A program made the position numbers and the translations under genes. A stretch of DNA of 62,777 bases from a virus (Duplodnaviria; Caudoviricetes), in IMG/VR virus record IMGVR_UViG_3300022413_000011, positions 1 through 62,777 of that record. One strand, given 5' to 3'. How positions within the stretch are numbered: position 1 is the first letter of the stretch; each line of letters opens with the position of its first letter. Of the stretch, positions 29,435-62,340 are shown piece by piece. Below the pieces are notes generated by a model, which was not told the origin of the DNA, did no database searches, and saw only the letters and a program-made list of their open reading frames with translations.

Positions 29435-29845
29435 CTACACTCCCACCCTAAATGTTCGCCACATAGTGTATATCAAGATATGCACCATAAGACCAGAGAT
29501 CATCATCCTCGTGGCTGTGATGAGAGAGATAAGCTCATTGCCGAACGTGAACCCATCACTGGAAGACACGGAAGATATGTTTGCCATGTGCAAGAGGGTC
29601 ATTATCGCCCCTATATACAGTCCCATCTCGGAGAACAGGATGGACATTGGGTCGTGGCGAATCTTTGCGAACCTGTAGAGAAGAAGGGCGCACAGACACA
29701 CTCCACCCGCGGCAGATATTGGATAAATAAAGATTCTGAATTTCCAAAGTGCTTCCGGGCTGGCACTGAGTACCCCGATAAAGGCCAGCATCATCACGGA
29801 CACACGTATGGCCGATATTTTCAAATGTGCCATGTTATATCCCAC
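29435..29845 (-). CDS. Four-TM membrane protein
   Basis: Four hydrophobic helices. Confidence 0.7.
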   Translation of the reverse strand: MGYNMAHLKISAIRVSVMMLAFIGVLSASPEALWKFRIFIYPISAAGGVCLCALLLYRFAKIRHDPMSILFSEMGLYIGAIMTLLHMANISSVSSSDGFTFGNELISLITATRMMISGLMVHILIYTMWRTFRVGV

Positions 29846-30368
29846 CCGTGACTTGCAGACCGACTATGAGAAGACCCAAGAAAAGACTTAGAAAAATCAG
29901 GTAAAATATGTGCTCAGTATATCGTGTCCCCCTGTTTCCATCGGGGTATTTTCTAATCTTCAACTCTGCTTCCACGCGACCCATTCTGCTATCCACCTGC
30001 TCCAGGGTAACCTGGAGATATGCAAGCTTCTTGTATATTTCTAGTAACTCTTTGCCATTCAAGTTATCACCCTCACTGGAGTCTATAGTTATCCTGTTCC
30101 TGTAACCCCCACTCTCTTTCCAGTGATTGGATAAAACTAGGTTCTTTAGGTGTTGATTTCCTGGGTTCTCTGAAAACGAGCCTAGAACCAGGGCAGATAA
30201 CTTGTTTCTCCTCTGTGCCCAAGAGACTAGGTTGCCTACCACCTCAGTAAAGCTTTCTCCCCCTACTATATCGCCTAGGTCTTCGTCAAGATGTGTACGC
30301 ACAACACGCACCATTTCTGCCTTATTAAAGGCATCTAGTAAAGCCTCAACTATCTGTTCCCGGTCCAT
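29835..30368 (-). CDS. Effector-associated domain 1 (EAD1), coiled coil and C-terminal TM helix
   Basis: EALLDAF...LDEDLGDIVGG...VVGNLVSWAQRRNKLSALVLGSFSENPGNQHL matches the EAD1 pattern. Confidence 0.8.
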   Translation of the reverse strand: MDREQIVEALLDAFNKAEMVRVVRTHLDEDLGDIVGGESFTEVVGNLVSWAQRRNKLSALVLGSFSENPGNQHLKNLVLSNHWKESGGYRNRITIDSSEGDNLNGKELLEIYKKLAYLQVTLEQVDSRMGRVEAELKIRKYPDGNRGTRYTEHIFYLIFLSLFLGLLIVGLQVTGGI

Positions 30369-30374
30369 CTCGTT

Positions 30375-32846
30375 TTACACATTGTACGTTATCGTCCAAC
30401 TGTATGGAGGCAACTTCAGCGTTTCCAGGTTTGCCTGTTGCGCAGCAGATGGAGATGCGTTGCTCCCTTCCAGGCTAAGAGTAATGGCGTTATTGTAGTT
30501 ATCTCTAGCTGCCCATATATCATCGCAGACCTGGTCTACTTCGGTTGTTGTCCAACTACAACCGTGAAATCGCATTTGTGTCGCGTCCACCCACAGCCCA
30601 GCAGCACCACCAGTACCGTACGATACATTTGTGTTAGTCGATGTGTTGATTACATATATAGCTGTCAGGCTTGTCCACTCTGAAATATCAGCACTCACGC
30701 TTGTCGCATTTATATATACAATACTCAACCCAGTCAACGTGCCTATATCTTGTCCATCTCCTGACACGCCAGAACCACCAAAGTGCATATACGTTAGACT
30801 GGTCAGCGCACTCAGTACGGATATGTCGCCAGTCATAGAAGCATTGGTGTGTAGGCGTATCTCCTCCAGGCTAGTTAGTGCCGTCAAGTCCGGTAAGGCT
30901 GTAAGGCCCTGGTCAGGAGCATTGAAATCTGTCACGCTGGCAGCAGTCGGAAACTCCACCACCACGGTTTGACTAGACCCATCAAGCACCTTGCTCGGGC
31001 TGTTGTTGGTCTGAATCTCGCCATCCTCAAAATACGCGTTGGCCGTTCCACTGCTTAGTACAAATGTGGGGTCAAATGTACCATTTTTATCGGTTTCCAT
31101 TGACACCTGGTTTGCGATGCTGCCAATATCGTATGATGTTGCGCTGGTAAACCTTTGTGCAGCCGTCACCAAGTACGCATCCTCTGTCGGACTATACGTA
31201 TACACACGTATCTCCCCGACACTACGCATCATTTGATAGATTCGTAGATAGCCCTCACCACCTTCTGCTCTGTCTTGGTAGTTGGCTAGGTACTGATGGA
31301 CTACATTCCCACCGTCACGCGTGTCGTCCAGGGACCCAACCCCGGGAGACAGCACGTGACCACCATGCACCATTTTCACGTTTTCACGGGTCAGTAAAAT
31401 CTTGTTGTATATCTGACGACCATTGTTAATCGTCGTGGACTCGGAGCCTGTATCAAACTCGTTTTCTGGCAGGTACAGGTGGCCTGAATCACCATGCCGT
31501 GTGTCATCGGTATACATATAAGCATGTGTAGCGATGACAGTCAGGTGGTTTGGATAGGTGTCAATTATGCCCGCGGCCCATGACAGGACAGCATCGCGCG
31601 GCCCATACTCCAGGGTCATGAACAGATAGTCTTTGCCACCTAGACGCGCTGTGTAGTATGCGTTTTCGCTGCGTCCACCCTCGTAGAACCCACCGTTCCA
31701 CCAGGTTTCAGACGTATACCTCGACTGTGGGAATCGCGTATTAAATTCCGTCACATCGCTGCGTACTGGTGGACTACCACTCATGTTGTCGTAGTCATGG
31801 TTCCCTACAGAAATCAAGTGGGGAATGTTATTTGTCGCCAGTGTCGCCATGCCAGCCACACCATTATCCCACTGGCCAGACACATCATCGTCAACCACAT
31901 CCCCAACGTGCAGCACAGCACCGATTTTGTATTTGCTCTGATTTGAGACTATCCAATCTGTCTGGTCAGTAAATGTGACGGGATAATCCTGACTGTAGAA
32001 TTGTGTATCAGGCAGAATGACCAGAGACCAGTCAAGTCCACTCGAAAGTTGCATTGGGCGATTTAGTCCAATGTCCCACTTTTTGGACAGATAGTCCTCT
32101 GCTTGCTCCATCTCGCTGTCAGTGAGCCCAGCGCGGTACGCAAGGATTTCGCCATGCTGACCGTTAAACAACCAGTCCAGACCGACGAAATCGAAATCAC
32201 CCACGTTTGACAACGCATCAGCATCTTTTAGCGCGCCAGTATGCGCAACGGCTGCGCCCAGTTGAATGCCGTTCTGCCTGATGATCTGGTCTGTCCCGTT
32301 GTACCTGAAGGAGAATATGTTCCACCCAGTCAAAGGCTCATTCGGTGTCTCTGTGTGGTCCACCCTGGTGGTCGTTATTGTCGTAAACTGCACGTTACCA
32401 GTCGAACGAATAGCGCAGAAAAACGTGCCATTGGTACTGCTATCGTGCTGACTGAGAAGCATCTGGTCAATACTGTCCGTGTCAGCCTTGCACACGACGA
32501 AAACAGTCAAACCGGCTGCATAGAAATCAATCTCAGGGCCTACAAACTCGTCATTGCCACCCCAGTCAATGGTGTTCAGGCTATTTTTGGTAACCAGTGT
32601 GGACTGAGGCTGATTGGCCGTCACACCCTGTGTGAACGCGTGTGCATTGCTGCTCTTGTCGGTCCACTGACTGACATGTGTAGCATCAGCAAGAGCAATG
32701 GTAGACGTGTCGGACGCGTCCAACCACAGGGAGAGATTGTCAATGGTTGTTGGCAGGAACAACGATGAAATCGCCTCCCCCGTGACACCCACGCCAATCC
32801 CAGGGTCCAACAGGGCATAGTCTGTTACTCTATGACTGCCCAGCAT
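30375..32846 (-). CDS. LamG-like, calcineurin-like metallophosphoesterase and leucine-rich-repeat protein
   Basis: LWLDASD LamG-like start; PDTQ, GDVVD, GNHD, THAY, GHV motifs; LTALTSLEEIRL-type LRRs. Confidence 0.8.
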   Translation of the reverse strand: MLGSHRVTDYALLDPGIGVGVTGEAISSLFLPTTIDNLSLWLDASDTSTIALADATHVSQWTDKSSNAHAFTQGVTANQPQSTLVTKNSLNTIDWGGNDEFVGPEIDFYAAGLTVFVVCKADTDSIDQMLLSQHDSSTNGTFFCAIRSTGNVQFTTITTTRVDHTETPNEPLTGWNIFSFRYNGTDQIIRQNGIQLGAAVAHTGALKDADALSNVGDFDFVGLDWLFNGQHGEILAYRAGLTDSEMEQAEDYLSKKWDIGLNRPMQLSSGLDWSLVILPDTQFYSQDYPVTFTDQTDWIVSNQSKYKIGAVLHVGDVVDDDVSGQWDNGVAGMATLATNNIPHLISVGNHDYDNMSGSPPVRSDVTEFNTRFPQSRYTSETWWNGGFYEGGRSENAYYTARLGGKDYLFMTLEYGPRDAVLSWAAGIIDTYPNHLTVIATHAYMYTDDTRHGDSGHLYLPENEFDTGSESTTINNGRQIYNKILLTRENVKMVHGGHVLSPGVGSLDDTRDGGNVVHQYLANYQDRAEGGEGYLRIYQMMRSVGEIRVYTYSPTEDAYLVTAAQRFTSATSYDIGSIANQVSMETDKNGTFDPTFVLSSGTANAYFEDGEIQTNNSPSKVLDGSSQTVVVEFPTAASVTDFNAPDQGLTALPDLTALTSLEEIRLHTNASMTGDISVLSALTSLTYMHFGGSGVSGDGQDIGTLTGLSIVYINATSVSADISEWTSLTAIYVINTSTNTNVSYGTGGAAGLWVDATQMRFHGCSWTTTEVDQVCDDIWAARDNYNNAITLSLEGSNASPSAAQQANLETLKLPPYSWTITYNV

Positions 32847-33118
32847 ATTTTCTCTCCAGATACGTCAGCATCGAATTTGTAGGATTCCAATGAGCACTGG
32901 GGAGTCGGATAGCTTTGCCCCAAACCCAGTGGATACCCATCTGTTGCACTCTGGCCTATCACCCACATGACACCCGTATTATCCGGGTGTGCTTTTATCA
33001 AAAACCGAGCAACCCCAGTAGCCTCTGGGCCACTCACAGGGGTTCCTGCCGTTGTGACGGTTACTTGCCCCGTCAAATCACCGGAGAACGCTCGTTCTGT
33101 TGGAGACAAAGCTGGCAT
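32825..33118 (-). CDS. Small beta-rich virion protein
   Basis: VTVTTAGT, IKAHPDNTG; GGAG RBS. Confidence 0.65.
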   Translation of the reverse strand: MPALSPTERAFSGDLTGQVTVTTAGTPVSGPEATGVARFLIKAHPDNTGVMWVIGQSATDGYPLGLGQSYPTPQCSLESYKFDADVSGEKICWAVIE

Positions 33119-33127
33119 AATTTACTC

Positions 33128-33465: not shown

Positions 33466-33873
33466 TTAGGCATTCCCGTCTGTCAAGGTAAATGTGGTCA
33501 CGGTGAACTGCTGGCCCGTGGCCAGAGACGTGTTATCTAACTCCATGTCTCCACCACCAGAGGTGGCAGTGATGGTCCCCTGCATATGGCAGGCTGTGTC
33601 ACCGTTGTTGTAGATACGAAAATGCGCCGCGGTGCCCGTGGCATCTGCCGACGTGTCTTCCCATGTCCCGGTTTTTGCTTTTGTTCCACTGGAAGCCGCG
33701 GCCATCCAGTCACTCGGAAGATTACACGTGGCCAAAACCGTTCCACTGTCTGCCGTCGCGCAATCTACTGGCGCTGCGCCAGTTCGGATTCGCAGGATGG
33801 CTGACACCCCTACCGTTGTTTCTATTTGGTCCAATCTGGCGTCTCTGACGCCTACAGATAGCTGTATTGCCAT
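33466..33873 (-). CDS. Virion structural protein
   Basis: LRIRTGAAP...ADATGTAAHFRI...MQGTI, pattern of phage fibre-associated proteins. Confidence 0.7.
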   Translation of the reverse strand: MAIQLSVGVRDARLDQIETTVGVSAILRIRTGAAPVDCATADSGTVLATCNLPSDWMAAASSGTKAKTGTWEDTSADATGTAAHFRIYNNGDTACHMQGTITATSGGGDMELDNTSLATGQQFTVTTFTLTDGNA

Positions 33874-33884: not shown

Positions 33885-35723
33885 TTATAAATCGACTGAT
33901 CCACTCAGCACGTCATTGGACACCTGTCCACCCCGAGATTTGTGGATAATACCGAGTGCAACCATCACAACCAGACTGGTTTCAATGGTTGCTGTACCAG
34001 ATAAAATAACATCCCCTAGCGTTACACCAAGTGTCCCCGTGCTTCCGGGCTGGTCACTCGACACCAGGGTCACATCCCCTAGCGTTGCAGATACGGTGCC
34101 AACTACCAGAACGTTGGCCGTGGACACTAGAGTTACATCCCCCAGCGTCGTAGATACCGCGCCAACCACAAAGACGCTGGCTGTGGACGCTGTGGACACA
34201 TCCCCCAACGTTGCAGATACCGCGCCAGAGACAGACCCTCCACCACCAGAAGACACCAGTGTCACGTCGTCAAGCGTTGGGCCAGATGAGCCACTTACTA
34301 GCACGCTGGCAGCAGATGATGCTGTTGCATCACCCAGCGTGCTAGACAGGGAAGCGTCTACTAGAACAGCACCAGTGGATGCTACCGTAGCATCTTCTAG
34401 GGTGGGACTCGCTGTTGCTGACACATCGACCGATGATGCAGACGATAGGGCAACATCATCCAGGGTCGAATCCAAGATTCCAAACGAGCCAGATCCACCA
34501 TTAGACGACAGTGAAACGTCCTCGAGTGTCACAGACAGGGTCGCGTCTACCGGGGCAGCACCAGCAGAAACCAGTGTTGCATCCCCTAACGTTGAAGAGA
34601 CCTGACCAGAGACAACGACTTCTGAAGCAGACACCAAAGAAGCATCTTCGAGAGTCTGCGCGAGTGTCCCAGACACCCCTATCGTTCCACTTGACGAAAG
34701 GGTCACATCGTCAAGTGTGGTGCTTGTTTGGCCATCCACCAGGACGGCTGCTGCTGACGCCAAGGTGACATCAGCTAACGTCGCTGATGTCTGACCCAAA
34801 ACCGTTATGCTGGCAGCAGATGAAAGGGATGTATCGGCCAACGTAACTGCTGCTGCACCATCCACCAGGACCGTTGACGCTGACACCAGGGTGGCATCAC
34901 CCAAGGTCTGTGTGAGTGTCCCGGAGACACCTCCGTCTACCGTTCCACTTGACGAAAGGGTCACATCTGCTAGGGTGGCGCTCGTTGTGCCATCTACGTC
35001 TACCTCCCCTGTGCCAGAGAGGGTCAAGTCTGCTAGAGTGACGCTCGTTGTGCCGTCTACATCCACCTCTCCAGTGCTGGAGAGGGTTAGGTCTGCTAGA
35101 GTGGCACTCGTTACACCGTCTACGTCCACCTCTCCAGTGCTGGAGAGGGTTGTATCGTCCAGAATTTTTGATAGTTGGCCCGTTACCAGGGCAACTGCCA
35201 GGGACGATACGCTGGCATCCTCCAGGGTGACCGACAGTGTAGCATCGACAAGAGAAACGCCAGTAGATGATAGGGTGACATCCCCCAGTGTGTTTGTGGA
35301 TGTTGCAACCACATCCACTTCACCTATACCACTAAGGGTCAGGGAGCCCAGGGTGGCACTCGTTGTGCCATCCACATCCACCTCTCCCGTACTAGAGAGG
35401 GTGGCGTCACCCAGAGTCTTTGTAAGTGTTCCTGATACCCCAGCGCCACCCTCCGACGCTGCTTCCATAAAGACTGGGAATGCCAAACGGCTGGTGATCC
35501 AGGTATCAAAATCGCCAGTTGACCCACTGGCAGGCTTTGCTACATCAAAGGTTTCTCGATTGGTGATCCAATCGTCAAATGTAGTAGTACCACCCGGGGG
35601 TGCAGCATCTACTACCCAAACCGAAAACGACCGATTGGTAATCCATCGGTCCAAGTCCCCTGTTGAGCCAGTGCTGGCTACGACAGTTCGGGTGATTCGG
35701 TTTGATACCCATTTGTCGAACAT
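33885..35723 (-). CDS. Thr/Ser/Val-rich 21-aa repeat fibre-like protein
   Basis: About 20 copies of TL(G/A/E/D)D(V/A)TLxS; four N-terminal DxW(I/V)(T/S)xR repeats. Confidence 0.75.
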   Translation of the reverse strand: MFDKWVSNRITRTVVASTGSTGDLDRWITNRSFSVWVVDAAPPGGTTTFDDWITNRETFDVAKPASGSTGDFDTWITSRLAFPVFMEAASEGGAGVSGTLTKTLGDATLSSTGEVDVDGTTSATLGSLTLSGIGEVDVVATSTNTLGDVTLSSTGVSLVDATLSVTLEDASVSSLAVALVTGQLSKILDDTTLSSTGEVDVDGVTSATLADLTLSSTGEVDVDGTTSVTLADLTLSGTGEVDVDGTTSATLADVTLSSSGTVDGGVSGTLTQTLGDATLVSASTVLVDGAAAVTLADTSLSSAASITVLGQTSATLADVTLASAAAVLVDGQTSTTLDDVTLSSSGTIGVSGTLAQTLEDASLVSASEVVVSGQVSSTLGDATLVSAGAAPVDATLSVTLEDVSLSSNGGSGSFGILDSTLDDVALSSASSVDVSATASPTLEDATVASTGAVLVDASLSSTLGDATASSAASVLVSGSSGPTLDDVTLVSSGGGGSVSGAVSATLGDVSTASTASVFVVGAVSTTLGDVTLVSTANVLVVGTVSATLGDVTLVSSDQPGSTGTLGVTLGDVILSGTATIETSLVVMVALGIIHKSRGGQVSNDVLSGSVDL

Positions 35724-37117
35724 TATGCTGCTGCCACCGTATCAAAAAATGTAGCATAACTGCCACTGGTTGCTGTGTTAAGGCTTTGTAGCTCCACCAC
35801 TACATACGGTGGATTCGCCGCGGGCGTAAATGTGTCAGATAGTTGATTCCACGTTGACGCACTGCCCACGTCTGTGGTCGTACGGTCTGATTGTCCGGGC
35901 TGCTTTATTACCATGCGCGGATTAGTACCAGCATAGTTGGTTTCGCGGTAACAGTATACTGAGATCGTTATACTAGAGCCACCATGTTCAACAAATAACT
36001 GCTGACTGCCAGCATCAGCTAGTTTAATGCTGGCCGTGCTACCCCCCTGCGTGGTCGTGGTTTCGCGCTCACTGGGTTGGTACTGCACAGCGCCCCATGA
36101 TTTCTTGGCGCTGGTGGTTGGGCGCGTTATGCCATATATGTCATCTGCTGCCTCAGTAGTCCCGGCAATGCGCGCAATCTGTGACCATTCCGACAGTTTG
36201 CCTGTGAATGGCGCACCAAACTCGATACCATCTAGCTGTATGGGTGGCTCAAATAGCGCGGGGTATGTGTTTGAGTTTGTACCTGTCGTCACGTTTGTGC
36301 GCGCTGTGCCAACTGCGTATATATTGTTGTAATCCTCTGTCAAGTCGCCACTGTTGGCAGCCGTTAGGCCCGTATTTTGGCCTATAATTGTGCAATTATT
36401 GACGGTAACGGTATCACTCAGCGCGCCGGTCACTTCGACGCCCAAATAGCCCCCGATCAACGTGCAGTTTTTTATGAGCGTATCACCTATCAGATTGGCC
36501 GTAATACAGGCCGTGTTATACCGTCCCGGCCCAAAAAATATGCAGTTTTCGATCAGATAGTTCGCTGTCGCATGGTCGCTACCATGATACAGGTAGATGC
36601 ACGCCTCGCGCCCCCCATAAAAAACGCACCGTCGAATAATCAGATTGGTGCCTGTCCCACCAATAAAAACAGTTTGAGTATTTACATCTACTGCGTGAAA
36701 AACGCAATCCTCTATGATGATGTCATCCTGTCCATTGGTCGCATTGAATAGGTATGATGTACACATATCCATAGTAAAGCCGCGGAAAGTGCGAAAGTCG
36801 CGACCAGCGCCAGATGTGCAAATAATACAATTCCCACGCGTCGCGGTCGTGTCGTTGTCGCTACCCGTGATGCGCACTACACCCCCCACGCCGTCGGTGT
36901 TGTCGCCAGTGACATCGCCTATGTAGGTGATGGGGTTGCCAGATGTGCCAGCGACATCGCATGTCAATGCTTCGCGATAGACCCCCGGTCCGACATAAAC
37001 AGTGTCGCCAGCAGCCACCGGCTCGTCCTCCGCGCCGTTGAGCGTCAGGAATCGATTAGCCCAGGACAAGCCATCGTTTGTGTCGTTGCCACCACTGCCG
37101 ACATAGTACGTTGTCAT
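35723..37117 (-). CDS. Right-handed beta-helix protein, paralog B
   Basis: YYV...GNDTNDGLSW...AGDTVYVGPGVYRE; IENC/IKNC/VNNC coils. Confidence 0.85.
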   Translation of the reverse strand: MTTYYVGSGGNDTNDGLSWANRFLTLNGAEDEPVAAGDTVYVGPGVYREALTCDVAGTSGNPITYIGDVTGDNTDGVGGVVRITGSDNDTTATRGNCIICTSGAGRDFRTFRGFTMDMCTSYLFNATNGQDDIIIEDCVFHAVDVNTQTVFIGGTGTNLIIRRCVFYGGREACIYLYHGSDHATANYLIENCIFFGPGRYNTACITANLIGDTLIKNCTLIGGYLGVEVTGALSDTVTVNNCTIIGQNTGLTAANSGDLTEDYNNIYAVGTARTNVTTGTNSNTYPALFEPPIQLDGIEFGAPFTGKLSEWSQIARIAGTTEAADDIYGITRPTTSAKKSWGAVQYQPSERETTTTQGGSTASIKLADAGSQQLFVEHGGSSITISVYCYRETNYAGTNPRMVIKQPGQSDRTTTDVGSASTWNQLSDTFTPAANPPYVVVELQSLNTATSGSYATFFDTVAAA

Positions 37118-51392: not shown

Positions 51393-51417
51393 CAATTTGG
51401 CAAAATCATGCTATGAT
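51389..51417 (+). promoter_or_regulatory. Sigma70-type promoter
   Basis: TTGACA-17 bp-TATGAT with TG. Confidence 0.8.
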
Positions 51418-51422
51418 AATCT

Positions 51423-51509: not shown

Positions 51510-51519
51510 GCCTGACTTC

Positions 51520-51978: not shown

Positions 51979-51984
51979 AATAAA

Positions 51985-52789: not shown

Positions 52790-53026
52790 TCAAGTGTCCT
52801 TTCTTGACCTTTTGGGTAATATTGAGTATTATGCTCATACGCGCGCGGCTCCCTCCAGGAGTCGCATATGAAAAATCCTCGTCACAGACATTCTCTCAGG
52901 AGAGAGAGAAATCGTAAGGGCAAGAAGTTTTCAAAGGCGTACCTCAAAACAGTAACCAAGAACCACCAGTAAGAATTTAGCCTAACCTAACACAAGTCAC
53001 TAGACCACCACACAGAGCCGCGCGCG

Positions 53027-53977: not shown

Positions 53978-53987
53978 TCTCCTCCCC

Positions 53988-54623: not shown

Positions 54624-54637
54624 TTGCTACACCGACA

Positions 54638-54874
54638 CTATGTAATTGTTACTCCGCGTACGACCTCTGACGAATACCGGACAATCCTGATTTTTTCGAT
54701 TCCATGAGTTTCGCACGCGACTTGGTATAATTTACTCGCCCTGTCTTCAGTGAACTTCGTGATGCCCCCATCCACCTCTGGAAGTGCTTGCCAGTAGGGT
54801 TCTTCACCCACACCATCGGTCCATAGATGAATTTCGTAGTAGGTGCCAATGGCGCGCGCGTTAATCCTCATCAA
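54638..54874 (-). CDS. Hypothetical protein
   Basis: Coupled ORF. Confidence 0.6.
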   Translation of the reverse strand: MMRINARAIGTYYEIHLWTDGVGEEPYWQALPEVDGGITKFTEDRASKLYQVACETHGIEKIRIVRYSSEVVRGVTIT

Positions 54875-55166
54875 TCATTTCCCCTAAAAATATTCTAACC
54901 TTTTCCTGGATAAGATCCAGATTGTCCACAACCCCACCTTTCCCCAACTGGTATCCTGCTGCAAATAGTGCCCTTTCCTCAAAGGTTGAACTATCGCTCA
55001 TGTACTCTTCTACATAGGCGATTATCTTTTGTAGATCCGTTATCAAGATGGAGTACCATCTGTCGATGGGCTTCCTTTCCAGGGTCCTGTGTGACTTGGC
55101 CACAGAAAGGGCTTCTCTAAGGTGATGCAAAAGTTGCTCGTCATAGTGGTCTTTTTCTGTATACAA
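54861..55166 (-). CDS. Hypothetical protein
   Basis: AGGAGG RBS before TTG. Confidence 0.65.
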   Translation of the reverse strand: MYTEKDHYDEQLLHHLREALSVAKSHRTLERKPIDRWYSILITDLQKIIAYVEEYMSDSSTFEERALFAAGYQLGKGGVVDNLDLIQEKVRIFLGEMIDED

Positions 55167-55176
55167 GGTAAGCCTC

Positions 55177-55926
55177 CTAGTTAAAAATCATGGACAACCA
55201 CACCCAGAACATTCCTTCTGGCTCCTCATTCTCGGGTAGCGACAGGGCGCATTCCTGGCTGTCTATACACGGAGTCGGTGTGGGGGTCGAGATGACAACC
55301 GTCACCTCTGGCATCGGTGTGTCTGGCTCACTCACCGTGGTGGGGATAATGGTTGTGACCGTCACGGCAGGAACTCGCGTGCTTGTTGGCGTTGGGGTTT
55401 CTGTTGGAGATGGACCCGTGGTTGGCGTTTCTAGGGGAACCACGTAGTCGAGTGCATAAAAGCTCTCGGTTCCCCTCCAGCAAAAGTCCCCCTCGTAGGG
55501 GGCTGTGAAAAATCCATACCACGTGAGTGTCACAGGCACATCTAGCAGGGAGACATCATTTGTGCAATCCGTAATAGATTCCGTCCGGTCAGCACGGTCC
55601 CTGTCTAAACCCAGTAGCAATACAGTCTGGCTTTGCTTTAGATACGCCAGGGGTGCCACTGTGGTGGCTGGCAGCATGGTTACCAGGGGGATGTCGCTGT
55701 CACAGTCCCCACCATCGCATCTCCAGCATTCCACGGTCTGGGCATCACTCTCTTCTGTTGGTCTTGCAATAACGGCTCTACGGAACTTCACGAAGTAATT
55801 ACCATCGAGGTTACCACACTGCTCCTGACCACTGCCTATATGGGTCAGGATGGGGAAGTTGCTCTGCGACAACACCGTCACAGGGGTGGCCAAAAGAACT
55901 AAAATGGCCACAATTAGTTGTCTCAC
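55177..55926 (-). CDS. Secreted protein with Pro/Thr linker and C-terminal VWLSMI motif
   Basis: Signal peptide; TPTTGPSPTETPTPT; FWVWLSMIFN. Confidence 0.8.
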   Translation of the reverse strand: MRQLIVAILVLLATPVTVLSQSNFPILTHIGSGQEQCGNLDGNYFVKFRRAVIARPTEESDAQTVECWRCDGGDCDSDIPLVTMLPATTVAPLAYLKQSQTVLLLGLDRDRADRTESITDCTNDVSLLDVPVTLTWYGFFTAPYEGDFCWRGTESFYALDYVVPLETPTTGPSPTETPTPTSTRVPAVTVTTIIPTTVSEPDTPMPEVTVVISTPTPTPCIDSQECALSLPENEEPEGMFWVWLSMIFN

Positions 55927-56033
55927 GACTCTGTGTCCTTTCCTTCACTTCGTGCGCCAACAATCACGGCACACACAAATACAAACGACGAACATATTGC
56001 AAAAAAGAGGAACAGGCATAACAGGAACTCCAA
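55923..56033 (-). CDS. 36-aa single-TM peptide
   Basis: AAAGGA RBS, TTG start, GTGA overlap with the next gene. Confidence 0.5.
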   Translation of the reverse strand: MEFLLCLFLFFAICSSFVFVCAVIVGARSEGKDTES

Positions 56034-56159
56034 TGCCTATCCTTTATCCACCACACCGTCTATCTGCTGGCTCGTTCAGTGAGCACCACACAGAAGGATG
56101 AGCAGAAATGCTTTTCAAAGCTCCCTCATGGCCCGAATAGCTGTCTCAAATGCAGTAGA

Positions 56160-56264
56160 TTATCCACCTCTCTTATGTTCCCACACGACCACGGCAAACA
56201 GAATGACCAGGGAAACAAATGCCAGCAAAAAAGCTACGATGTCTTGCCTATCTAAGAGCGACAT
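56160..56264 (-). CDS. 34-aa single-TM peptide
   Basis: MSLLDRQDIVAFLLAFVSLVILFAVVVWEHKRGG. Confidence 0.45.
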   Translation of the reverse strand: MSLLDRQDIVAFLLAFVSLVILFAVVVWEHKRGG

Positions 56265-56346
56265 GGGGGAAGTCGCTTGGACCCAGCAAGGTCAGCAGAA
56301 AATAGAGGAAAATCACGGAAACAACAAACAGAATAAACGACCTCAT
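56248..56346 (-). CDS. 32-aa single-TM peptide
   Basis: ATGA overlap; MRSFILFVVSVIFLYFLLTLLGPSDFPHVALR. Confidence 0.5.
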   Translation of the reverse strand: MRSFILFVVSVIFLYFLLTLLGPSDFPHVALR

Positions 56347-56477
56347 TCTATGACATCCTCGAGAATGTTTTTCCTCTTGATTCGTTTCGCTTCCATGAGT
56401 CCCAACCTCACCCCCACCCCTACCAGCAGGATGGTGCTAACTAGTGAGAATGAAATCACGACCAATATGTCTCTCAT
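56343..56477 (-). CDS. 44-aa single-TM peptide
   Basis: GGGGTG RBS; MRDILVVISFSLVSTILLVGVGVRLG. Confidence 0.55.
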   Translation of the reverse strand: MRDILVVISFSLVSTILLVGVGVRLGLMEAKRIKRKNILEDVIE

Positions 56478-56511
56478 GTCACCCCACCACGTTCTTGTCA
56501 GGAACGTTTTT

Positions 56512-57138
56512 CTATAAAAGGTCAGCACTAATAAGCATCGAAACAAACTCCTCCTTGTTTCGAGGGGCGAACGAGGCCATCAGGCAGGACACGAACGTGC
56601 CCAGGGGAATAGAATGACCATTTCTGAAGGTGGAATTTATCGCAACCTGACTCGCGTCCCCGTCCCCCGTCGCTTTCGATTTCGCTACTGTGGATATTGC
56701 AAAAGGCACATCCAGTTCGACAAGCTGCCTGTGCGCTTCTTCCACAACTCTTCGCACCTTCTCGACCGTTTCCTCATCCCCGTATTCCGGCCTATCCGAC
56801 ATGAGGGAATTTCTGAGATTCCCGGGTCTTCCATTCGCCATGTCTATCACGAAATGGATAAACTCGTGCGGTAGCTCCATCAAAGCGCACATTGCCTCGA
56901 TCAAGCATGAGCCATCTTCCTTACGGGACACCTGGGACACCACGCTGTCATCTAGTTCGACCGTGGCCATCACGGTAACCCCATTTTCACTGGCAACACG
57001 GAGGGCTTCCCCCAGTAAATCCAGAACCATCTGCTGATGGGGGTTAATCCCTTTATCATCACCTTGTTCAGACGGTGGCTCCCCACCACTTCTGAGGAAT
57101 TCCTCTATCTCTGAGCACAACTCTTTTTGTTTTTCCAT
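56512..57138 (-). CDS. Hypothetical protein, possibly two similar halves
   Basis: ATG 57138 after AAGGAG. Confidence 0.7.
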   Translation of the reverse strand: MEKQKELCSEIEEFLRSGGEPPSEQGDDKGINPHQQMVLDLLGEALRVASENGVTVMATVELDDSVVSQVSRKEDGSCLIEAMCALMELPHEFIHFVIDMANGRPGNLRNSLMSDRPEYGDEETVEKVRRVVEEAHRQLVELDVPFAISTVAKSKATGDGDASQVAINSTFRNGHSIPLGTFVSCLMASFAPRNKEEFVSMLISADLL

Positions 57139-57185
57139 GTATCTCCTTATCGCTCCTGCTATGATTATTAAATCCGGCAATACTT

Positions 57186-57214
57186 ATTGTACACTGATTG
57201 TGGGATTTTTGCAA
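57186..57214 (-). promoter_or_regulatory. Sigma70-type promoter (leftward)
   Basis: TTGCAA-17 bp-TACAAT on the minus strand. Confidence 0.7.
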
Positions 57215-57302
57215 GAGCTATAGCCCTTCAGGGGTGATTGTAGCACATATTATCTGAAAAATCAATCGGTACGAAACAGGATGAGTCTGCCAGTATCGTA
57301 AT

Positions 57303-57343
57303 TTGTCACTTATTAAATAATATGATATACTATTATTTAATAA
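57303..57343 (+). promoter_or_regulatory. Promoter overlapped by a 13-8-13 inverted repeat
   Basis: TTGTCA-17 bp-TATACT; TTATTAAATAATA-TGATATAC-TATTATTTAATAA. Confidence 0.75.
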
Positions 57344-57360
57344 TCACATGGGAGAGAGAC

Positions 57361-57798
57361 ATGAAGTACGCAACAACATTTAGTATGGACAAGGAAGTGG
57401 TGGACCTGCTGGCAGAGATGGCAGGGTCGCGCAGAAAGATGGGTAAGCTCCTGGGAACCCTCATTATGCAGGAGGCGTGCAGGAGGGGGTTAGAGGAATC
57501 CCAAGATGGCGTGTTTCAGTCTGAAGTGCTCTCTGAAATCACGGATGGGGTATTTGGGAATGAGTTCCTCGAGATTGTCCCGATGATTCACGGGACTGCT
57601 CACGTGAGGATAACCAAGAATGTTCTTAATGGCCCAGAAGTGGGTCTGGTACTGTCATCTCTGTACCTGTTGCACGTTGCCCTTTCTGTGACGAGGTATG
57701 AGAGTGTTGTGTTGAGCCAAGGGGATGACACGGTTCCGGGGTTAGCAGAGGCGATTCGTATGGCAATTAGAGCGAGTGAAATACTTGGAAAGGAGTAG
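57361..57798 (+). CDS. Ribbon-helix-helix-like regulator
   Basis: ATTFSMDKEVVDLLAEMA...MGKLLGTLIMQEA; GGAG RBS. Confidence 0.6.
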   Translation: MKYATTFSMDKEVVDLLAEMAGSRRKMGKLLGTLIMQEACRRGLEESQDGVFQSEVLSEITDGVFGNEFLEIVPMIHGTAHVRITKNVLNGPEVGLVLSSLYLLHVALSVTRYESVVLSQGDDTVPGLAEAIRMAIRASEILGKE

Positions 57799-57803
57799 GA
57801 GCG

Positions 57804-58112
57804 ATGAAGGTGATGAAAGCAATAGTGTGGGTGAAAGATGGAGAAGCAACGTTTCTGGATGCCAAGAGCCCTGACGACATCCAGTTGGAAACAATCGACA
57901 TGCTTGGTGGTCATTTCCCCCTGACAGACCTTTTCTCTAGGTCTGACGACATTGAGCAGGTGCAGGATTTCGTGGGCACGTTGCAAAACGGGCTACACGA
58001 GATAGGCATCATGACGAGGCGACTGGAATTTGCCGAAATCGACATAAAACCAGTCTACTGTGTGGGTTCTCGAATCATATCAAATTTAGTCCTATATTTA
58101 CACACAGGATAA
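57804..58112 (+). CDS. Hypothetical protein
   Basis: AAGGAG RBS. Confidence 0.7.
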   Translation: MKVMKAIVWVKDGEATFLDAKSPDDIQLETIDMLGGHFPLTDLFSRSDDIEQVQDFVGTLQNGLHEIGIMTRRLEFAEIDIKPVYCVGSRIISNLVLYLHTG

Positions 58113-58123
58113 GGAGGGTAGCA

Positions 58124-59089
58124 ATGAACAAAATCACACTGACGGACAGCGTGTACCCTGTTGGAGCCGACTTGGGAAACGGTTTTGTTAACCTATACAT
58201 GCAGGACCGACACGCTGGCCTACCGGCTGGATACATGCTCGAGAAACCCACAGGCCCATACGACCCCAAGCGCATGTCATACAAATCCCCAAAGGCGCAA
58301 GAGATTGTCGTCAACGATAAAACCGTATGGGTTGGCCGCGATACTCTCACTGACAAGATGGTGAGATACCTGGACGACACAAAGTACGACAAAGAGCATC
58401 TTCGTATCCTGTTCAGTGCAGGGTTGGCAGAATGGCTTTCCCTGACGAAGGCAAGCACCGAAGAAACGCTACGTCTACGCGTGGCATGTGGGATGCCAGC
58501 CGAAAAGTTCCAGGACCCCAAGAACCGCGCGCTTGCCGAGAAAGCGTACAAGGCTGCTTTTAAGGTGACTAACTCGGACCAGTGGCGCATCACGGTCGGT
58601 GGCAAAAGGATACGTCTGCTGACCGAGTTTGCTGGACTCAGACCCGAGACCGTTGGGTACGCTTGCGTAAGCAAGTTGCACAAAGGGTACACGGTGTTGA
58701 TGGACTGTGGTGCGGGAACCGTCGATGTGTGTGTGTTCCATAGCTCCCAACAGAAAACCCCCATAACTGTAAAATCCTTCAACATAGGGCTCATACACGC
58801 GTTTGACGACATCAACCCCATGCAGATGGACCTACCAGAACTCCTTCTGATTCGTAAGGAGATTGATCCATCGGTACTTAACCCGTACGTGGCGCAAATC
58901 AAGACGCTGACCACAAAGTTCTGTCGCAGGCTCGAAGTGAAGGGGCAGGAAATCAGGGTAAAAATTATTGGGGGCTTGCCTCACCTGATGAGCAAGGAGC
59001 AGCGCGCGTCTCTCTCAATGGGGATACCAGTCGTGTTTGGTGATGCTGGAGAAAACGCGCGGGCGTTTGCTAACTACGCTGGAGAGTAG
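58124..59089 (+). CDS. parM: Actin-like partition ATPase (ParM/StbA family)
   Basis: Phosphate-1 GADLGNGFVN, connect ACGMP and RPET, phosphate-2 MDCGAGTVD, adenosine IIGG. Confidence 0.85.
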   Translation: MNKITLTDSVYPVGADLGNGFVNLYMQDRHAGLPAGYMLEKPTGPYDPKRMSYKSPKAQEIVVNDKTVWVGRDTLTDKMVRYLDDTKYDKEHLRILFSAGLAEWLSLTKASTEETLRLRVACGMPAEKFQDPKNRALAEKAYKAAFKVTNSDQWRITVGGKRIRLLTEFAGLRPETVGYACVSKLHKGYTVLMDCGAGTVDVCVFHSSQQKTPITVKSFNIGLIHAFDDINPMQMDLPELLLIRKEIDPSVLNPYVAQIKTLTTKFCRRLEVKGQEIRVKIIGGLPHLMSKEQRASLSMGIPVVFGDAGENARAFANYAGE

Positions 59090-59097
59090 GGGTCCTG

Positions 59098-59155
59098 TCC
59101 CTAAATCCGTCGAAAATGGGATGGGTGCATCCCTAAATCCGTCAAGAACGGGATG
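59098..59155. repeat. Two 26-bp direct repeats between parM and the downstream gene
   Basis: TCCCTAAATCCGTCGAAAATGGGATG / TCCCTAAATCCGTCAAGAACGGGATG, period 32. Confidence 0.85.
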
Positions 59156-59159
59156 AAAA

Positions 59160-59435
59160 ATGGAAATCAGGTTCAGATTAGATGCCGTGGTAGATGTAAA
59201 ATTTTTGGAGAAATTCTCTCCCCTGGTGAACGCTGGTGCTTCACAGGGGGACGCGTTCCGCGCGTCTCTGCAACAACTACTACTAGAGGCAGAGAGGGGT
59301 GGCGTGATACTGGCCCTGTCCAGTCAGCCCCCAATGGTCAACAACTACGCCACACCGAGCACCAGCATGGGGAAGGCTGTGGAGACAGACTCCGACCCAT
59401 TTGATGTGGATTTTGACGATATTGTAATCAGTTAA
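59160..59435 (+). CDS. Putative ParR-like adaptor
   Basis: Small gene after parM; EIRFRLD beta-strand, helices, acidic disordered tail. Confidence 0.55.
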   Translation: MEIRFRLDAVVDVKFLEKFSPLVNAGASQGDAFRASLQQLLLEAERGGVILALSSQPPMVNNYATPSTSMGKAVETDSDPFDVDFDDIVIS

Positions 59436-59451
59436 AAACAAAGGAGACACT

Positions 59452-59886
59452 ATGAATGCACTGAGAACCTTAATCGTGGTTATGACATTTTTCATAATCA
59501 TTGGCGTTAGTGGGGCTGGAGCCCAAGGAAACCAGGGGGTCAATTTCGACCTCTGCCCACTAATCAATGACGTTGTCTTCTGCCCCTTTGATGAGTTTGG
59601 GCATGTTTACTGGGAACCTGCCGATGAGCCCGGAAATCCAGTCGTCAAACCTTGTGGCTTGAACGGCTGCTATTACGTCCTCCCGTCGTGTGGCACAATC
59701 GGGTGCCAGGTGGAATACAAGGCATGGGGTGGCAACAGTAAGGGCGAACTCAAGGAGTGGGCCGTCTCCATCTTTGTTGGGTTCGAAGGGGTGGCGCAAT
59801 ATCACCCAATCGCTGTCCCCGACCAGGGGTTGAGAACCTTCCTTCCAGCAGTCAAAAATCAGCCAGAACCAATTTTCACACCGTAG
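59452..59886 (+). CDS. Secreted Cys-rich protein with C-terminal TFLPAV motif
   Basis: Signal peptide (AGA-Q); LRTFLPAVKNQ; AAGGAG RBS. Confidence 0.8.
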   Translation: MNALRTLIVVMTFFIIIGVSGAGAQGNQGVNFDLCPLINDVVFCPFDEFGHVYWEPADEPGNPVVKPCGLNGCYYVLPSCGTIGCQVEYKAWGGNSKGELKEWAVSIFVGFEGVAQYHPIAVPDQGLRTFLPAVKNQPEPIFTP

Positions 59887-59893
59887 TCGTTCT

Positions 59894-59977
59894 GAGGGCA
59901 TAGCTCAATGGGAGAGCGACACTGAGGTTGGGTCCCTCTGTACTGTGTAGATGTGGGTTCGATTCCTACTGCCCTCG
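59894..59977 (+). tRNA. tRNA-like element with an enlarged anticodon arm (identity undetermined)
   Basis: Acceptor GAGGGCA/TGCCCTC, D-arm TAGCTCAATGGGAGAGC, T-arm GTGGG-TTCGATT-CCTAC; no encoded CCA. Confidence 0.7.
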
Positions 59978-59992
59978 TTTTAAGGAGACATC

Positions 59993-60325
59993 ATGATAAA
60001 AGTTTTACTGACAGCCCTGTTCCTGCTTATCTCCCTGCTCGCGTACGTGTCCTCCGTGGCCATAGAGAGTCACAACAGGGCCTACGTGGACGTGGAGGTG
60101 AGCAAGCAGGTCACCCAACAAACAGGCATCGAATGGGATGGCAGGGTTAGAATAGCCGAAATCGAGGCAAGTAGGGACGTAAGTGTTGCCGAGATACACA
60201 GGGACGAGGTTGTTTGGTCTAGCTGGGCCTGGAACGTGGGCAGCGTTATCCGTGGCCTCCTATGGGTTCTGGCCACGGTCGCCTGCCTGTACCTAATCCT
60301 GCTATATTCCAGGACATTCTCGTAG
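59993..60325 (+). CDS. Membrane protein (N- and C-terminal TM)
   Basis: AAGGAG RBS; two hydrophobic segments. Confidence 0.7.
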   Translation: MIKVLLTALFLLISLLAYVSSVAIESHNRAYVDVEVSKQVTQQTGIEWDGRVRIAEIEASRDVSVAEIHRDEVVWSSWAWNVGSVIRGLLWVLATVACLYLILLYSRTFS

Positions 60326-60338
60326 GGGGTCAGCGCAC

Positions 60339-60791
60339 ATGGACAAACAGGGACCAGAGTGGGGCTACACCCCCAAACCGTTCGAATTCCACGGTAGGAT
60401 GATGTACAAGAAGTGCTGGTTCTGCGCAACCTGGACGGACCCCGAAATAGAGCATGTTCTTAGCCATGTGCCCCCCGAAGGGCTCCAGGAGTGGATTTGT
60501 GGAGACTGTAAGGAGGGACTGGCCACTAAAAAGGCCAACTCAAAGGAAAGGAGGAGAGAACTCATAAGGATGCTCAAGGACGGACCCCTGACCGTCTCGG
60601 AGGCAGCAGAGGAACTCGGCGTCGTCTGGGCTATGGCAAACAGGGACATGGTCTCCCTGTGTGAACATAAATTCGCCAAGGAAACGGAAGTAAACGGCAA
60701 AAAAGCCGTGGAATTACGTGAGATAGACGGAAATATTGAAGAAATGCTCGAAAAGTACGAAGAAACCATTAGAAAACGCCGCGAGGCGTGA
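60339..60791 (+). CDS. Zn-finger plus winged-helix protein
   Basis: CWFC...CGDC; GPLTVSEAAEELGV. Confidence 0.7.
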   Translation: MDKQGPEWGYTPKPFEFHGRMMYKKCWFCATWTDPEIEHVLSHVPPEGLQEWICGDCKEGLATKKANSKERRRELIRMLKDGPLTVSEAAEELGVVWAMANRDMVSLCEHKFAKETEVNGKKAVELREIDGNIEEMLEKYEETIRKRREA

Positions 60792-60801
60792 AAGGACACT
60801 T

Positions 60802-61539
60802 ATGGAACACCTTCTAACAGGATTCGACATCGAAATAGCCACAAAACTGCCCGATGGCAAGCGCGATTGGACCATCTACTCCCCCGGAGTGACCTGCGCA
60901 GTCACAATGGACCACGAAAGCGTGCTGAAGAACAGAGACCCGGGAGTCTGGTACGGGACTGGCAAACACGGGGTAACAGCAGCGCAAATGAGCCCCGTCG
61001 AGGTCCGAAACTTGATGGATTGCATCATTGACTCGGCTGTGGGCCAGACAGCAAGCCGAAAAATCGTAACATGGAACGGTCTGTCCTTCGACTTCCCTGT
61101 GTTACTCAAGGAGGCTGGCAGATACGGTGATGAGATAGCCGACACCTGGAAACATATCGCCATTGCGCACCATATCGACCTGATGTATATGGTCGTATCA
61201 AAGGCTGGCCACTATCTGGCCCTGGACAAAGCCCTGAAGGGGGCTGGACTCGAGGGAAAAACGCCAGGAGTGGATGGAGCACTGGCACCGGAGATGTGGA
61301 AGGAAGGGAAATACGCCGAGGTAATCGAATACTGCGTCCAGGATGTTAAGCAAACCCTCCTGCTAGCCGATTGGGTCAACAAAAACAAGAAAATCGCCTG
61401 GACATCGGGCGCAGGGAACCTAACAGGCGTCCAGTTCCCTAACGGACTCCTGACCGTCTACGAGTGCATGAGCATACGTGGCCCAGATGAACCCCTGGTG
61501 GACCGAACCGCGGCCATGCGCTGGATGGAGGAAATATAA
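60802..61539 (+). CDS. RNase H-like 3'-5' exonuclease (DEDD family)
   Basis: FDIE, WNGLSFDFP, HIDL, YCVQDV. Confidence 0.85.
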   Translation: MEHLLTGFDIEIATKLPDGKRDWTIYSPGVTCAVTMDHESVLKNRDPGVWYGTGKHGVTAAQMSPVEVRNLMDCIIDSAVGQTASRKIVTWNGLSFDFPVLLKEAGRYGDEIADTWKHIAIAHHIDLMYMVVSKAGHYLALDKALKGAGLEGKTPGVDGALAPEMWKEGKYAEVIEYCVQDVKQTLLLADWVNKNKKIAWTSGAGNLTGVQFPNGLLTVYECMSIRGPDEPLVDRTAAMRWMEEI

Positions 61540-61886
61540 TGGCCCACGAAAACCTGATGGACGCAAAATTCAAGAACATGCTGAAAGGGCACGACGACGG
61601 ATACCTTTACGCTGTAGTCGAGAACGGAGCACTCACGGTACACCCAGTCGTGTGGGATGTGCCAGAAGGCACCATCCCCCGTGAGTTACTCCTGGTGGCC
61701 TACCAGTTGGACCTGATGAGAGAAGAGGAGTCCCTATCCTGGGAACGGAGCGAGGAAGGACTGGGCGTACGCTGGCACGATGAAAACAAATTCGTGCTCC
61801 TGGAGAATGTTGGAATTAGCAAGGAAATAGGATTTTATGTGAAGCCCCTGTTCCCAAATGAGGAGGACATATCCAAGGGCTACTAA
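61539..61886 (+). CDS. Hypothetical protein
   Basis: TAATG coupling, GGAGG RBS. Confidence 0.7.
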   Translation: MAHENLMDAKFKNMLKGHDDGYLYAVVENGALTVHPVVWDVPEGTIPRELLLVAYQLDLMREEESLSWERSEEGLGVRWHDENKFVLLENVGISKEIGFYVKPLFPNEEDISKGY

Positions 61887-61896
61887 AAACTCACTG

Positions 61897-61925
61897 TTGA
61901 CTAGCAGGAACATGTGTGATATGAT
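61897..61925 (+). promoter_or_regulatory. Sigma70-type promoter
   Basis: TTGACT-17 bp-TATGAT with TG. Confidence 0.75.
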
Positions 61926-61930
61926 TTGCG

Positions 61931-62086
61931 TGCCAATGTTTGTTCTCCGTAGCCCCACTTTCTCCTGTCGCAATTTAATGGGGTTCCGTGGCATGGCATT
62001 CTGATTTCTCCTTTAGGGTAATGTTGGTAGGATTATAGTTGATAGCAAAAGGGCCAGATCCATATGGATCTGGCCCTTTTGTTTTT
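61931..62086 (+). ncRNA. Candidate ~155-nt small RNA with three UUCUCC motifs
   Basis: Promoter-to-terminator unit with no credible plus-strand ORF. Confidence 0.45.
62046..62086. terminator. Perfect 36-bp palindrome, likely bidirectional terminator
   Basis: CAAAAGGGCCAGATCCAT-ATGGATCTGGCCCTTTTG then a T-run. Confidence 0.8.
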
Positions 62087-62218
62087 CACTAGAACCCATC
62101 ATGCACCCGGATATACTGGTCGCTTATTCCCAGTATTCCAGAAACCCATCATATATCATGACAATGGACCAGTCAACCCCCCTGGCGATTCCCTGCGTAC
62201 CGAAACATGACTTGACCG

Positions 62219-62340
62219 TAAAACACCCCTAAACATCCCACTAAAACATGACTAAAACACCCCTAAACATCCCTAAATAAATCCTAAACCCTAAAACCCC
62301 ATAATCTGCCCCCACTCGACTGAAAAACACCCCCTAAACT
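62219..62340. repeat. CCTAAA-rich repeat cluster
   Basis: TAAAACACCCCTAAACATCCC at 62219 and 62253; further CCTAAA copies up to 62338. Confidence 0.8.

Follow-up and report, generated by a model that had tools for sequence, protein, structure and literature searches.

A sediment siphovirus of an isolated lineage as a candidate ParM-type plasmid prophage with a membrane-anchored EAD1 protein

Does a phage genome recovered from sediment belong to a virus that is maintained as a plasmid, and what kind of bacterium would carry it? The question is raised by IMG/VR virus record IMGVR_UViG_3300022413_000011, which was analysed over its full length of 62,777 bases (class linear; 'the window' below) and which encodes, among other proteins, a ParM-family actin-like ATPase, an FtsK/SpoIIIE-family ATPase and a protein with an EAD1 domain. 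The initial annotation, a hypothesis on a 32-kb span and not on a motif, to which as a whole no chance test applies, had joined these genes into a phage-plasmid fitted to life in multicellular Chloroflexota. Three of its five parts stood up (the ParM, FtsK-family and EAD1 genes); the TraB identity given to the FtsK-family protein and the YLP sorting signals did not, and its RNA-based control came down to a candidate. The reading preferred here, in which confidence and doubt are evenly balanced, is that the window holds about four-fifths of a new, isolated, temperate sediment siphovirus that would persist as an extrachromosomal plasmid prophage.

Profile searches with Pfam, PHROGs and NCBIfam covered 63 open reading frames (ORFs) of the window. 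Judged by gene content, the window is clearly a tailed phage of siphovirus type, since the small and large terminase subunits (TerS and TerL), portal, tape measure and tail fibres are all encoded, and the virion and packaging gene set was judged complete for a phage-plasmid by the same searches.

The gene on which the plasmid reading turns lies at 58124–59089 on the plus strand and encodes a 321-residue ParM-family actin-like ATPase. The product matched Pfam ALP_N (30.8 bits with a cut-off of 26.3, E 3.9e-7) and PHROG 691 'partition protein' (E 3.4e-9); it scored 32.7 on the NCBIfam ParM equivalog PRK13917, for which the cut-off is 417, and is therefore placed outside that orthologue group. 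ParM/Alp proteins were recognized by the phosphate-1 motif DxGxx, the phosphate-2 motif DxGxGTxD, the adenosine motif GG and an actin/Hsp70 fold. All three actin motifs are conserved in a 28-sequence alignment of the ParM relatives, where D16/G18/N19, D194/G196/G198/T199/D201 and G283/G284 show little or no variation. An AlphaFold2 (AF2) model built from the alignment reached a mean predicted local distance difference test (pLDDT) score of 94.4, and of the 25 top-ranked PDB structures in a Foldseek search with this model nearly all were ParM or Alp proteins or the archaeal actin Ta0583. The best match was pSK41 ParM (E 1.3e-16), with Desulfitobacterium cParM1 (Dh-cParM1), Ta0583, R1 ParM and Clostridium botulinum ParM also at the top and Bacillus thuringiensis ParM and Alp7A further down; sequence identity to the solved ParMs was 11–18%. 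On motifs and model, the product is classed as a member of the ParM/Alp actin-like segregation ATPases, with a predicted function in filament formation and stabilisation, and the actin partitioning gene of the initial annotation is borne out. Its family is small: an exhaustive search of 1.84 billion proteins yielded 40 representative relatives (E<=0.001). For ten ParM relatives a look-up of their clusters yielded neither names nor taxa. A word-based protein search picked up two relatives on short Logan contigs, at 69% and 60% identity; by tblastn, neither the 50,697 GenBank phage records nor 72,556 plasmids contained a match.

Two 26-nt direct repeats follow between parM and the next ORF (59098–59155; 88% alike, 32-nt spacing, each with the heptamer CCCTAAA) and form a candidate operator or centromere. 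The next ORF, of 91 codons (59160–59435, plus strand), occupies the canonical position of ParR and is, by position and sequence, a candidate adaptor, whose N-terminus is beta-alpha-alpha-like and whose C-terminal tail is acidic. Since the position of ParM, the small downstream ORF and the repeats correspond to the ParMRC layout, the three elements are read as a ParMRC-like cassette in which the adaptor and centromere roles are putative. The PDB complex of R1 ParM with a C-terminal peptide of ParR was among the Foldseek matches (rank 12) and fits an adaptor with a C-terminal tail. A complex prediction of ParM (with alignment) and the 91-residue protein gave scores of 0.27 and 0.16 with a mark of 0.32, and counts neither way. 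Upstream of parM, the same operon holds two ORFs of 158 and 102 codons (57322–58112, plus strand; ORF list and Pfam), the first with a faint hint of the ribbon-helix-helix family RHH_1 (E 0.14). At the head of the operon a promoter-like site, TTGTCA-17-TATACT with a TG element (57303–57343, plus strand), overlaps a perfect 13-bp inverted repeat, and minus-strand promoter-like sites diverge from the same region; all of these are consensus matches. CCCTAAA is over-represented in the window (15 sites observed, 5.6 expected; none of 100 shuffles reached 15). Five of the sites, including two exact 17-nt copies, lie in non-coding DNA 3 kb further on (array at 62215–62340, plus strand; heptamers within 62227–62338), where repeat families and a TRF period of 10–11 were recorded, and form a putative parC or iteron array.

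For replication the phage would rely on a module of its own at 23–6832 on the plus strand, which was recognized with Pfam, PHROGs and NCBIfam and comprises a primase (truncated at the left edge of the window), an initiator (1768–2976; phrog_4707, E 1.4e-24), a sliding clamp, a methyltransferase and DnaB. Two adjacent 15-bp arrays with different units (3.9 and 2.7 copies, 2104–2211) lie within the initiator gene; an origin within the initiator gene is the arrangement of lambda. At sequence level the window thus holds both plasmid-type partition and autonomous replication, in the form of ParM, an initiator with iterons, DnaB, primase and clamp. A 254-residue XRE/HTH_3 protein (8326–9090, plus strand; Pfam, PHROGs and NCBIfam) is a candidate repressor. 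Recombinases were sought with PF00589, PF00239 and PF00665 (tyrosine recombinase, serine recombinase and DDE transposase) in six frames of the 62,777 bases, and none was found; in control genomes the same profiles were positive in 14, 13 and 8 of 14, respectively. None appeared among the 63 ORFs in the profile searches either. Plasmid lysogeny, the state that we infer and that the initial annotation had proposed, is reasonable because the ParM cassette with its repeats and the replication module with its iterons occur together with an XRE-type regulator and with no recombinase in 62.8 kb.

Several observations weigh against this. CheckV estimated the window to be 81% complete, and about 18 kb of the genome are placed outside it since the primase gene is truncated by the left end and since the EAD1 and ParM proteins are also recorded on one contig of 80,458 bases; the missing 19% or so could encode an integrase. 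No toxin–antitoxin or ParA/ParB genes were found in the window, no lysogen, circular junction or reads bearing on the physical state were found, and no relatives were found that would show the cassette conserved in this phage lineage. The 91-residue protein has no Pfam match even at E 10, and its single-sequence AF2 model (pLDDT 45) is unusable; only two repeats flank parM, and the array at 62.2 kb has just the heptamer in common with them. ParM-fold proteins also occur in phages not known as plasmids: BFVD holds a handful of viral proteins with this fold, of which Gp506 of Bacillus phage G ranks first. These points speak for a phage of another kind, an integrating temperate or a virulent one, whose recombinase (if any) would be encoded in the unsequenced fifth and whose ParM would serve DNA positioning or replication during infection; parM does lie in a long plus-strand early/replication block and adjoins an exonuclease gene, and the adaptor and centromere are candidates, the adaptor having neither a family match nor a usable model. 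Against such a phage stand the absence of a recombinase from six frames, the correspondence of the locus to the ParMRC layout, and the use of exactly such a cassette by confirmed plasmid prophages, as given in the available part of PMC11526630. We regard it as possible and rather less probable than a plasmid prophage.

If the phage is a plasmid prophage, replication would start at the lambda-style iterons inside its initiator gene, with its own DnaB, primase and clamp. The copies would then be pushed apart by the ParMRC-type cassette, in which ParM would act with a small adaptor, most likely the product of the ORF directly downstream, and the CCCTAAA-containing repeats would be its operator or centromere. 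Two accessory genes would be added to this core, one for a membrane-anchored FtsK/SpoIIIE ATPase that probably handles DNA at the membrane and one for a membrane-tethered EAD1 adaptor that most likely engages host EAD1-dependent conflict systems by binding homotypically.

The first of these genes (48497–50041, plus strand) encodes a 514-residue P-loop ATPase of the FtsK/SpoIIIE family with two N-terminal hydrophobic segments in the hydropathy profile. It matched PF01580 (58.8 bits with a cut-off of 24, E 6.7e-16) and phrog_1358 (E 2e-38), has one FtsK_SpoIIIE motor domain with Walker A (GGAPGSGKS) and Walker B (VLIVDEAD) motifs, and its PDB sequence matches were EccC and FtsK. By tblastn, 250 phage records carry an FtsK-like relative (178 Bacillus, 52 Mycobacterium and 2 Cylindrospermopsis), the best at 24.8% identity over 75% of the query. 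The initial annotation had called the protein a TraB-like translocase for movement along filaments. TraB was tried as an identity and rejected: the NCBIfam TraB model NF041214 gave only 23.2 bits over residues 333–374 (42 residues) with a cut-off of 800, and EccCb (53.1 bits), EssC (48.7) and FtsK (42.5) all scored higher. Streptomyces TraB has a C-terminal DNA-recognition domain, cognate clt repeats and Spd spreading genes. In the window protein no winged helix-turn-helix family was found at the C-terminus in the Pfam scan, and no clt-like repeats or Spd genes were identified, for which no dedicated search was made. What stands of the earlier claim is a membrane-anchored FtsK/SpoIIIE ATPase; on sequence similarity it belongs to the generic family also found in Mycobacterium and Bacillus phages, and the proposed movement along filaments is not supported. 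Its role is probably DNA handling at the membrane; the FtsK-like protein of RBClin15 is, in the available text of PMC11526630, only 'thought to regulate DNA segregation'. Downstream of ftsK follow a 161-residue protein with two transmembrane (TM) segments, a 125-residue double helix-turn-helix (HTH) protein and a DUF1064 resolvase-like protein (50025–51392, plus strand; Pfam, PHROGs, hydropathy and PADLOC). In PADLOC, two proteins of 48497–50872 (plus strand) matched components of MADS defence, the FtsK-like protein mad8 (E 1.8e-14) and the HTH protein two genes downstream mad1 (E 4.9e-8). A defence system was rejected here, the matches being to generic P-loop and HTH domains; no other mad genes were seen in the scan.

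The most unusual element of the genome is a phage-borne EAD1 domain. It is encoded at 29835–30368 on the minus strand, inside the late structural operon between head and tail genes, in a 177-residue protein that consists of the domain (residues 2–78), a linker and a C-terminal membrane anchor (hydrophobic segment at residues 150–168). The domain had been named in the initial annotation and was confirmed by PF19955 (44.6 bits with a cut-off of 24.2, E 2e-11; residues 2–78 correspond to profile positions 7–86 of 90), by its structural neighbours in the Atlas, which are EAD1 clusters, and by alignment with bona fide EAD1 of Calothrix and of an actinobacterium. No PHROG family matched the protein, tblastn against the GenBank phage records gave nothing at E<=0.1, and no second EAD1 was found by Pfam among the 63 ORFs. 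Among proteins of similar length a word-based search retrieved just the protein itself, and among longer ones none; in the protein and PLSDB searches no homologue was closer than about 35% identity. A phage-borne EAD1 was found neither in the phage databases searched nor in the main text of two papers on EADs, and the words 'decoy' and 'phage-encoded' are absent from the text of PMC8195603. The start of the gene for a 136-residue protein with three hydrophobic (TM) segments (29435–29845, minus strand) overlaps the stop of the EAD1 gene by 11 nt. Directly upstream lies the gene for an 823-residue protein (30375–32846, minus strand) in which a virion-protein-like N-terminus (phrog_10356, E 8.7e-18) is fused to a calcineurin-like metallophosphatase (PF00149, E 1.7e-6); calcineurin-like phosphoesterases are listed in the available part of PMC8195603 among the effector domains of conflict systems with EAD and TRADD-N.

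The role proposed for EADs is to link effectors with regulated suicide-immunity systems in multicellular bacteria. By analogy with the death-fold-only decoys of animal viruses, the phage protein might be a viral adaptor mimic that is made late, binds host EAD1 homotypically on NTPase-centred 'apoptotic' systems and sequesters it at the membrane, so that no effector is recruited. Together with plasmid lysogeny, and possibly with FtsK-driven passage of the replicon between connected cells, this would amount to a lifestyle for filamentous multicellular bacteria of whichever phylum, a picture that we consider unlikely as a whole. The gene is nevertheless a candidate inhibitor or hijacker of EAD systems and offers a handle on EAD–EAD coupling, which has so far only been predicted.

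The two further parts of the initial annotation fared less well. For RNA-based control, a candidate non-coding RNA unit was located at 61897–62092 (plus strand), with a promoter of the form TTGACT-17-TATGAT, then a stretch of about 160 nt, and then an 18-bp hairpin followed by a T run. The promoter-like site (61897–61925) matches 10 of 12 consensus positions, the hairpin terminator lies at about 62047–62090, and the fold has a z score of −4.7, with none of 200 shuffles folding as well. Against it, the Rfam scan of the window returned one tRNA and no family for this unit, and the promoter scan of the region was not above chance overall (8 sites, 5.4 expected), which leaves the unit a candidate. 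Host-type sorting signals with a YLP motif were not found: no credible ORF has YLP near its C-terminus, the sole YLP tripeptides lie 147–450 residues from the stop, and no NCBIfam sorting-signal model matched among the 63 ORFs.

The lineage itself appears new and isolated on sequence comparison. Searches of IMG/VR, the GenBank phages, PLSDB and the GTDB species genomes turned up no genome that is closely or even moderately related. An IMG/VR scan with TerL gave matches in 37 of 41 stretches, all at 21–28% identity; scans of IMG/VR with ParM, the FtsK-like protein and a 403-residue head protein gave none, and neither did scans with the ParM alignment and with one ParM relative. On GTDB species-genome contigs the ParM alignment profile matched none of 185 stretches, and TerL matched 7 of 34, distantly (22–26%), in Actinomadura, Clostridia and Sporomusa. 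When metagenomes were scanned with the primase, four distant matches came back and the longer contig of the phage itself did not; none of 53 loci compared had more than three genes in common with the window. In the Atlas, the structural matches of the 403-residue head protein were all viral clusters, among them head-completion or connector proteins, and gave no clue to the host. The sediment origin is documented by three metagenome runs with fragments at least 99% identical to 42778–62777 (41 of 44, 47 of 50 and 29 of 32 contigs); these contigs are short and of low depth, and the runs, all from 2018, may stem from a single campaign. No RNA run is listed as containing the sequence. When placed on 42778–62777, the contigs of the three runs showed no joints and carried no information on the genome ends. 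One gene stands out by its conservation. A 135-residue 'virion structural protein' (33466–33873, minus strand; phrog_3758, E 3e-34) is 60–77% identical on 21 IMG/VR contigs, 16 of which share that gene only and 5 of which also share part of its 612-residue neighbour. It is about 61% identical to its counterparts in Pseudanabaena phage Pan4 (61.5%) and Caulobacter phage Seuss and 42% identical to those of Microcystis phages, which have no further gene in common with the window, and on this comparison looks like a highly conserved, promiscuous cassette.

The host is left unassigned; it is probably a bacterium with EAD1 systems, for which Chloroflexota is one candidate only. According to the available text of PMC7159879, EAD1 occurs in actinobacteria, cyanobacteria, planctomycetes, chloroflexi and some proteobacteria, and EAD1 systems are significantly associated with multicellular prokaryotes; in the accessible part of Kaur et al., EAD1 is described as widespread across bacteria that have these systems. 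Because it is so widespread, the domain argues for a host with such systems and not for one phylum. The initial annotation had envisaged a multicellular Chloroflexota host, in which ParM and RNA control would maintain the element, a TraB-like pump would move it along filaments, surface proteins would bear YLP signals and EAD1 would act against immunity. In its favour, the ParM, FtsK-family and EAD1 genes are real, EAD1 systems do occur in chloroflexi, one large Atlas EAD1-NACHT cluster is commonest in Chloroflexota, and the phage is from sediment. Nothing was found, however, that ties the phage to this phylum in IMG/VR, GenBank phages, PLSDB or the ParM and TerL scans of GTDB species, none of them a search aimed at Chloroflexota genomes. 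The EAD1 matches in PLSDB were all Nostocales plasmids (4 of 4 records: two Calothrix, one Fischerella and one Nostoc; 29–35% identity), and by commonest phylum four of the six Atlas EAD1 rows are Cyanobacteriota or Actinomycetota, one Chloroflexota and one Pseudomonadota. With TraB failing, YLP signals absent and the RNA a consensus-level candidate, with passage between cells by one ATPase a conjecture, and with no relatives found in which co-occurrence of the modules could be seen, this version is very improbable. The Chloroflexota host, the source of much of its appeal, receives no support from anything found here, nor is it refuted.

The same element could instead belong to a filamentous cyanobacterium or an actinomycete. 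For cyanobacteria speak the EAD1 of the window, which is closer to that of a Calothrix plasmid (34.6%, 50 bits) than to the best fetched actinobacterial one (28%, 32 bits) in a comparison of very few sequences, the two Cylindrospermopsis phages among the 250 records with an FtsK-like relative, and the likeness of the 135-residue virion protein to that of Pan4. For actinomycetes speak the structural genes, which resemble those of actinophages at 25–29% identity, TerL, which is closest to Streptomyces and Thermobifida phages (27–29%), and the Sipho_Gp37 and 'minor tail' PHROGs, an LmbU-like regulator and the cluster-J-type FtsK. All of these identities are low, the 135-residue gene is promiscuous and occurs in Caulobacter and Vibrio phages as well, and Chloroflexota are strongly under-represented in PLSDB and among the GenBank phages. 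Of 401 evenly sampled Actinomycetota genomes, two had EAD1 above the cut-off, and one of the 401 was matched, marginally, by the phage protein. We consider a host from these two groups possible but less likely than not.

The remainder of the window is that of a tailed phage of siphovirus type. The late block runs on the minus strand from 47.9 kb to 10.2 kb in the order TerS, TerL, portal, head, tape measure, minor tail and fibre, and the guanine–cytosine content is even along the window (0.48–0.54). The packaging genes (44027–47879) comprise TerS (47460–47879), a 156-residue ORF, TerL (45657–46985) and the portal (44027–45685), and the tail genes (10456–25327) encode a 1981-residue tape measure protein, minor tail proteins and a fibre with an S74 chaperone; both sets were assigned with Pfam, PHROGs and NCBIfam. 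Within the late operon, two adjacent paralogues of 464 and 460 residues (35723–38499, minus strand) have nearly identical C-terminal ends, and a right-handed beta-helix domain is present in one of them. They probably act in receptor binding or as depolymerases, and their head-proximal site is unusual. A 10-bp A-tract unit, GGAAAAATCT, is repeated about six times at 47919–47993, in the intergenic DNA from which terS and the ftsK block diverge; the repeats could represent bent DNA, a regulatory region or a pac/cos site. Within a 150-codon ORF (9545–9997), 48 bp are perfectly duplicated in tandem (9687–9782, plus strand). The tRNA gene at 59893–59978 (plus strand; Rfam 52.4 bits) has an anticodon region of 22 nt where the model expects 9, and was called Pro(AGG) by ARAGORN, while by eye an extended stem would expose a UUGGGUC loop, which makes it Pro(GGG); the gene may carry an insertion of 13 nt or be degenerate. 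The right end (62400–62777) is of low complexity and strongly strand-asymmetric, CA-rich at 62400–62600 and then GA-rich at 62620–62700, and may be the cause of the stop of the assembly at 62,777.

The interest of the record rests mainly on the EAD1 gene and on an isolated lineage that bears ParM; the story that unites them is one that we infer. Compared with the bacterial EAD1 conflict systems (Kaur, Burroughs, Iyer, Aravind 2020), the window protein shares the all-alpha domain of about 80 residues placed N-terminal to a variable C-terminal part. It differs in being phage-encoded within a late operon, in carrying just a linker and a membrane anchor behind the domain, and in having no fused core NTPase, vWA domain or effector enzyme. 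With the phage FtsK-like proteins of phrog_1358 and with Streptomyces TraB the window ATPase has in common one FtsK_SpoIIIE motor, Walker A and B motifs and an N-terminal membrane segment; it differs from the former (of Mycobacterium phages of cluster-J size and of Bacillus phages) in its identity of at most 25% and coverage of at most 75%, and from TraB in falling below the equivalog model. In ParMRC systems the layout is that of a multi-iteron parC upstream of parM. The actin fold and nucleotide-binding motifs are shared with R1, pSK41 and C. botulinum ParM and with Alp7A, as are the small ORF downstream of parM and direct repeats nearby, whereas the repeats of the phage lie 3' of parM and 3 kb off and its candidate adaptor is without a family match.

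The initial annotation had seen no described equivalent. Plasmid prophages that use ParM have in fact been described: Bacillus phages IEBH, Bp8p-C and B83 are, in the available text of PMC11526630, experimentally confirmed plasmid prophages with a parM-like gene and an RHH/HTH adaptor. They share with the window a temperate, siphovirus-type virion plan, a small adaptor gene behind that of a ParM-like ATPase, and a replication protein of their own. In the IEBH record (50,000 of 53,104 bases, 82 of 86 features) a small ORF comes after the partition gene, a replication protein and, as here, a DUF1064 resolvase are present, gp72 is annotated as a transposase, and no feature is named integrase. The differences are that the ParM family is distinct, with no tblastn similarity to the window ParM, that the phage lineages are unrelated, that no FtsK or EAD1 gene is annotated in that part of IEBH, and that the plasmid state of the window phage is predicted from its genes. 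If this state is confirmed, ParM plasmid prophages would extend beyond Bacillus and Clostridium to an unrelated environmental lineage with a new, small ParM family. As a candidate ParM-type plasmid prophage the phage is thus of a kind already known, comparable to IEBH; what is new is the unrelated lineage, the small ParM family and the addition of an FtsK-family and an EAD1 gene.

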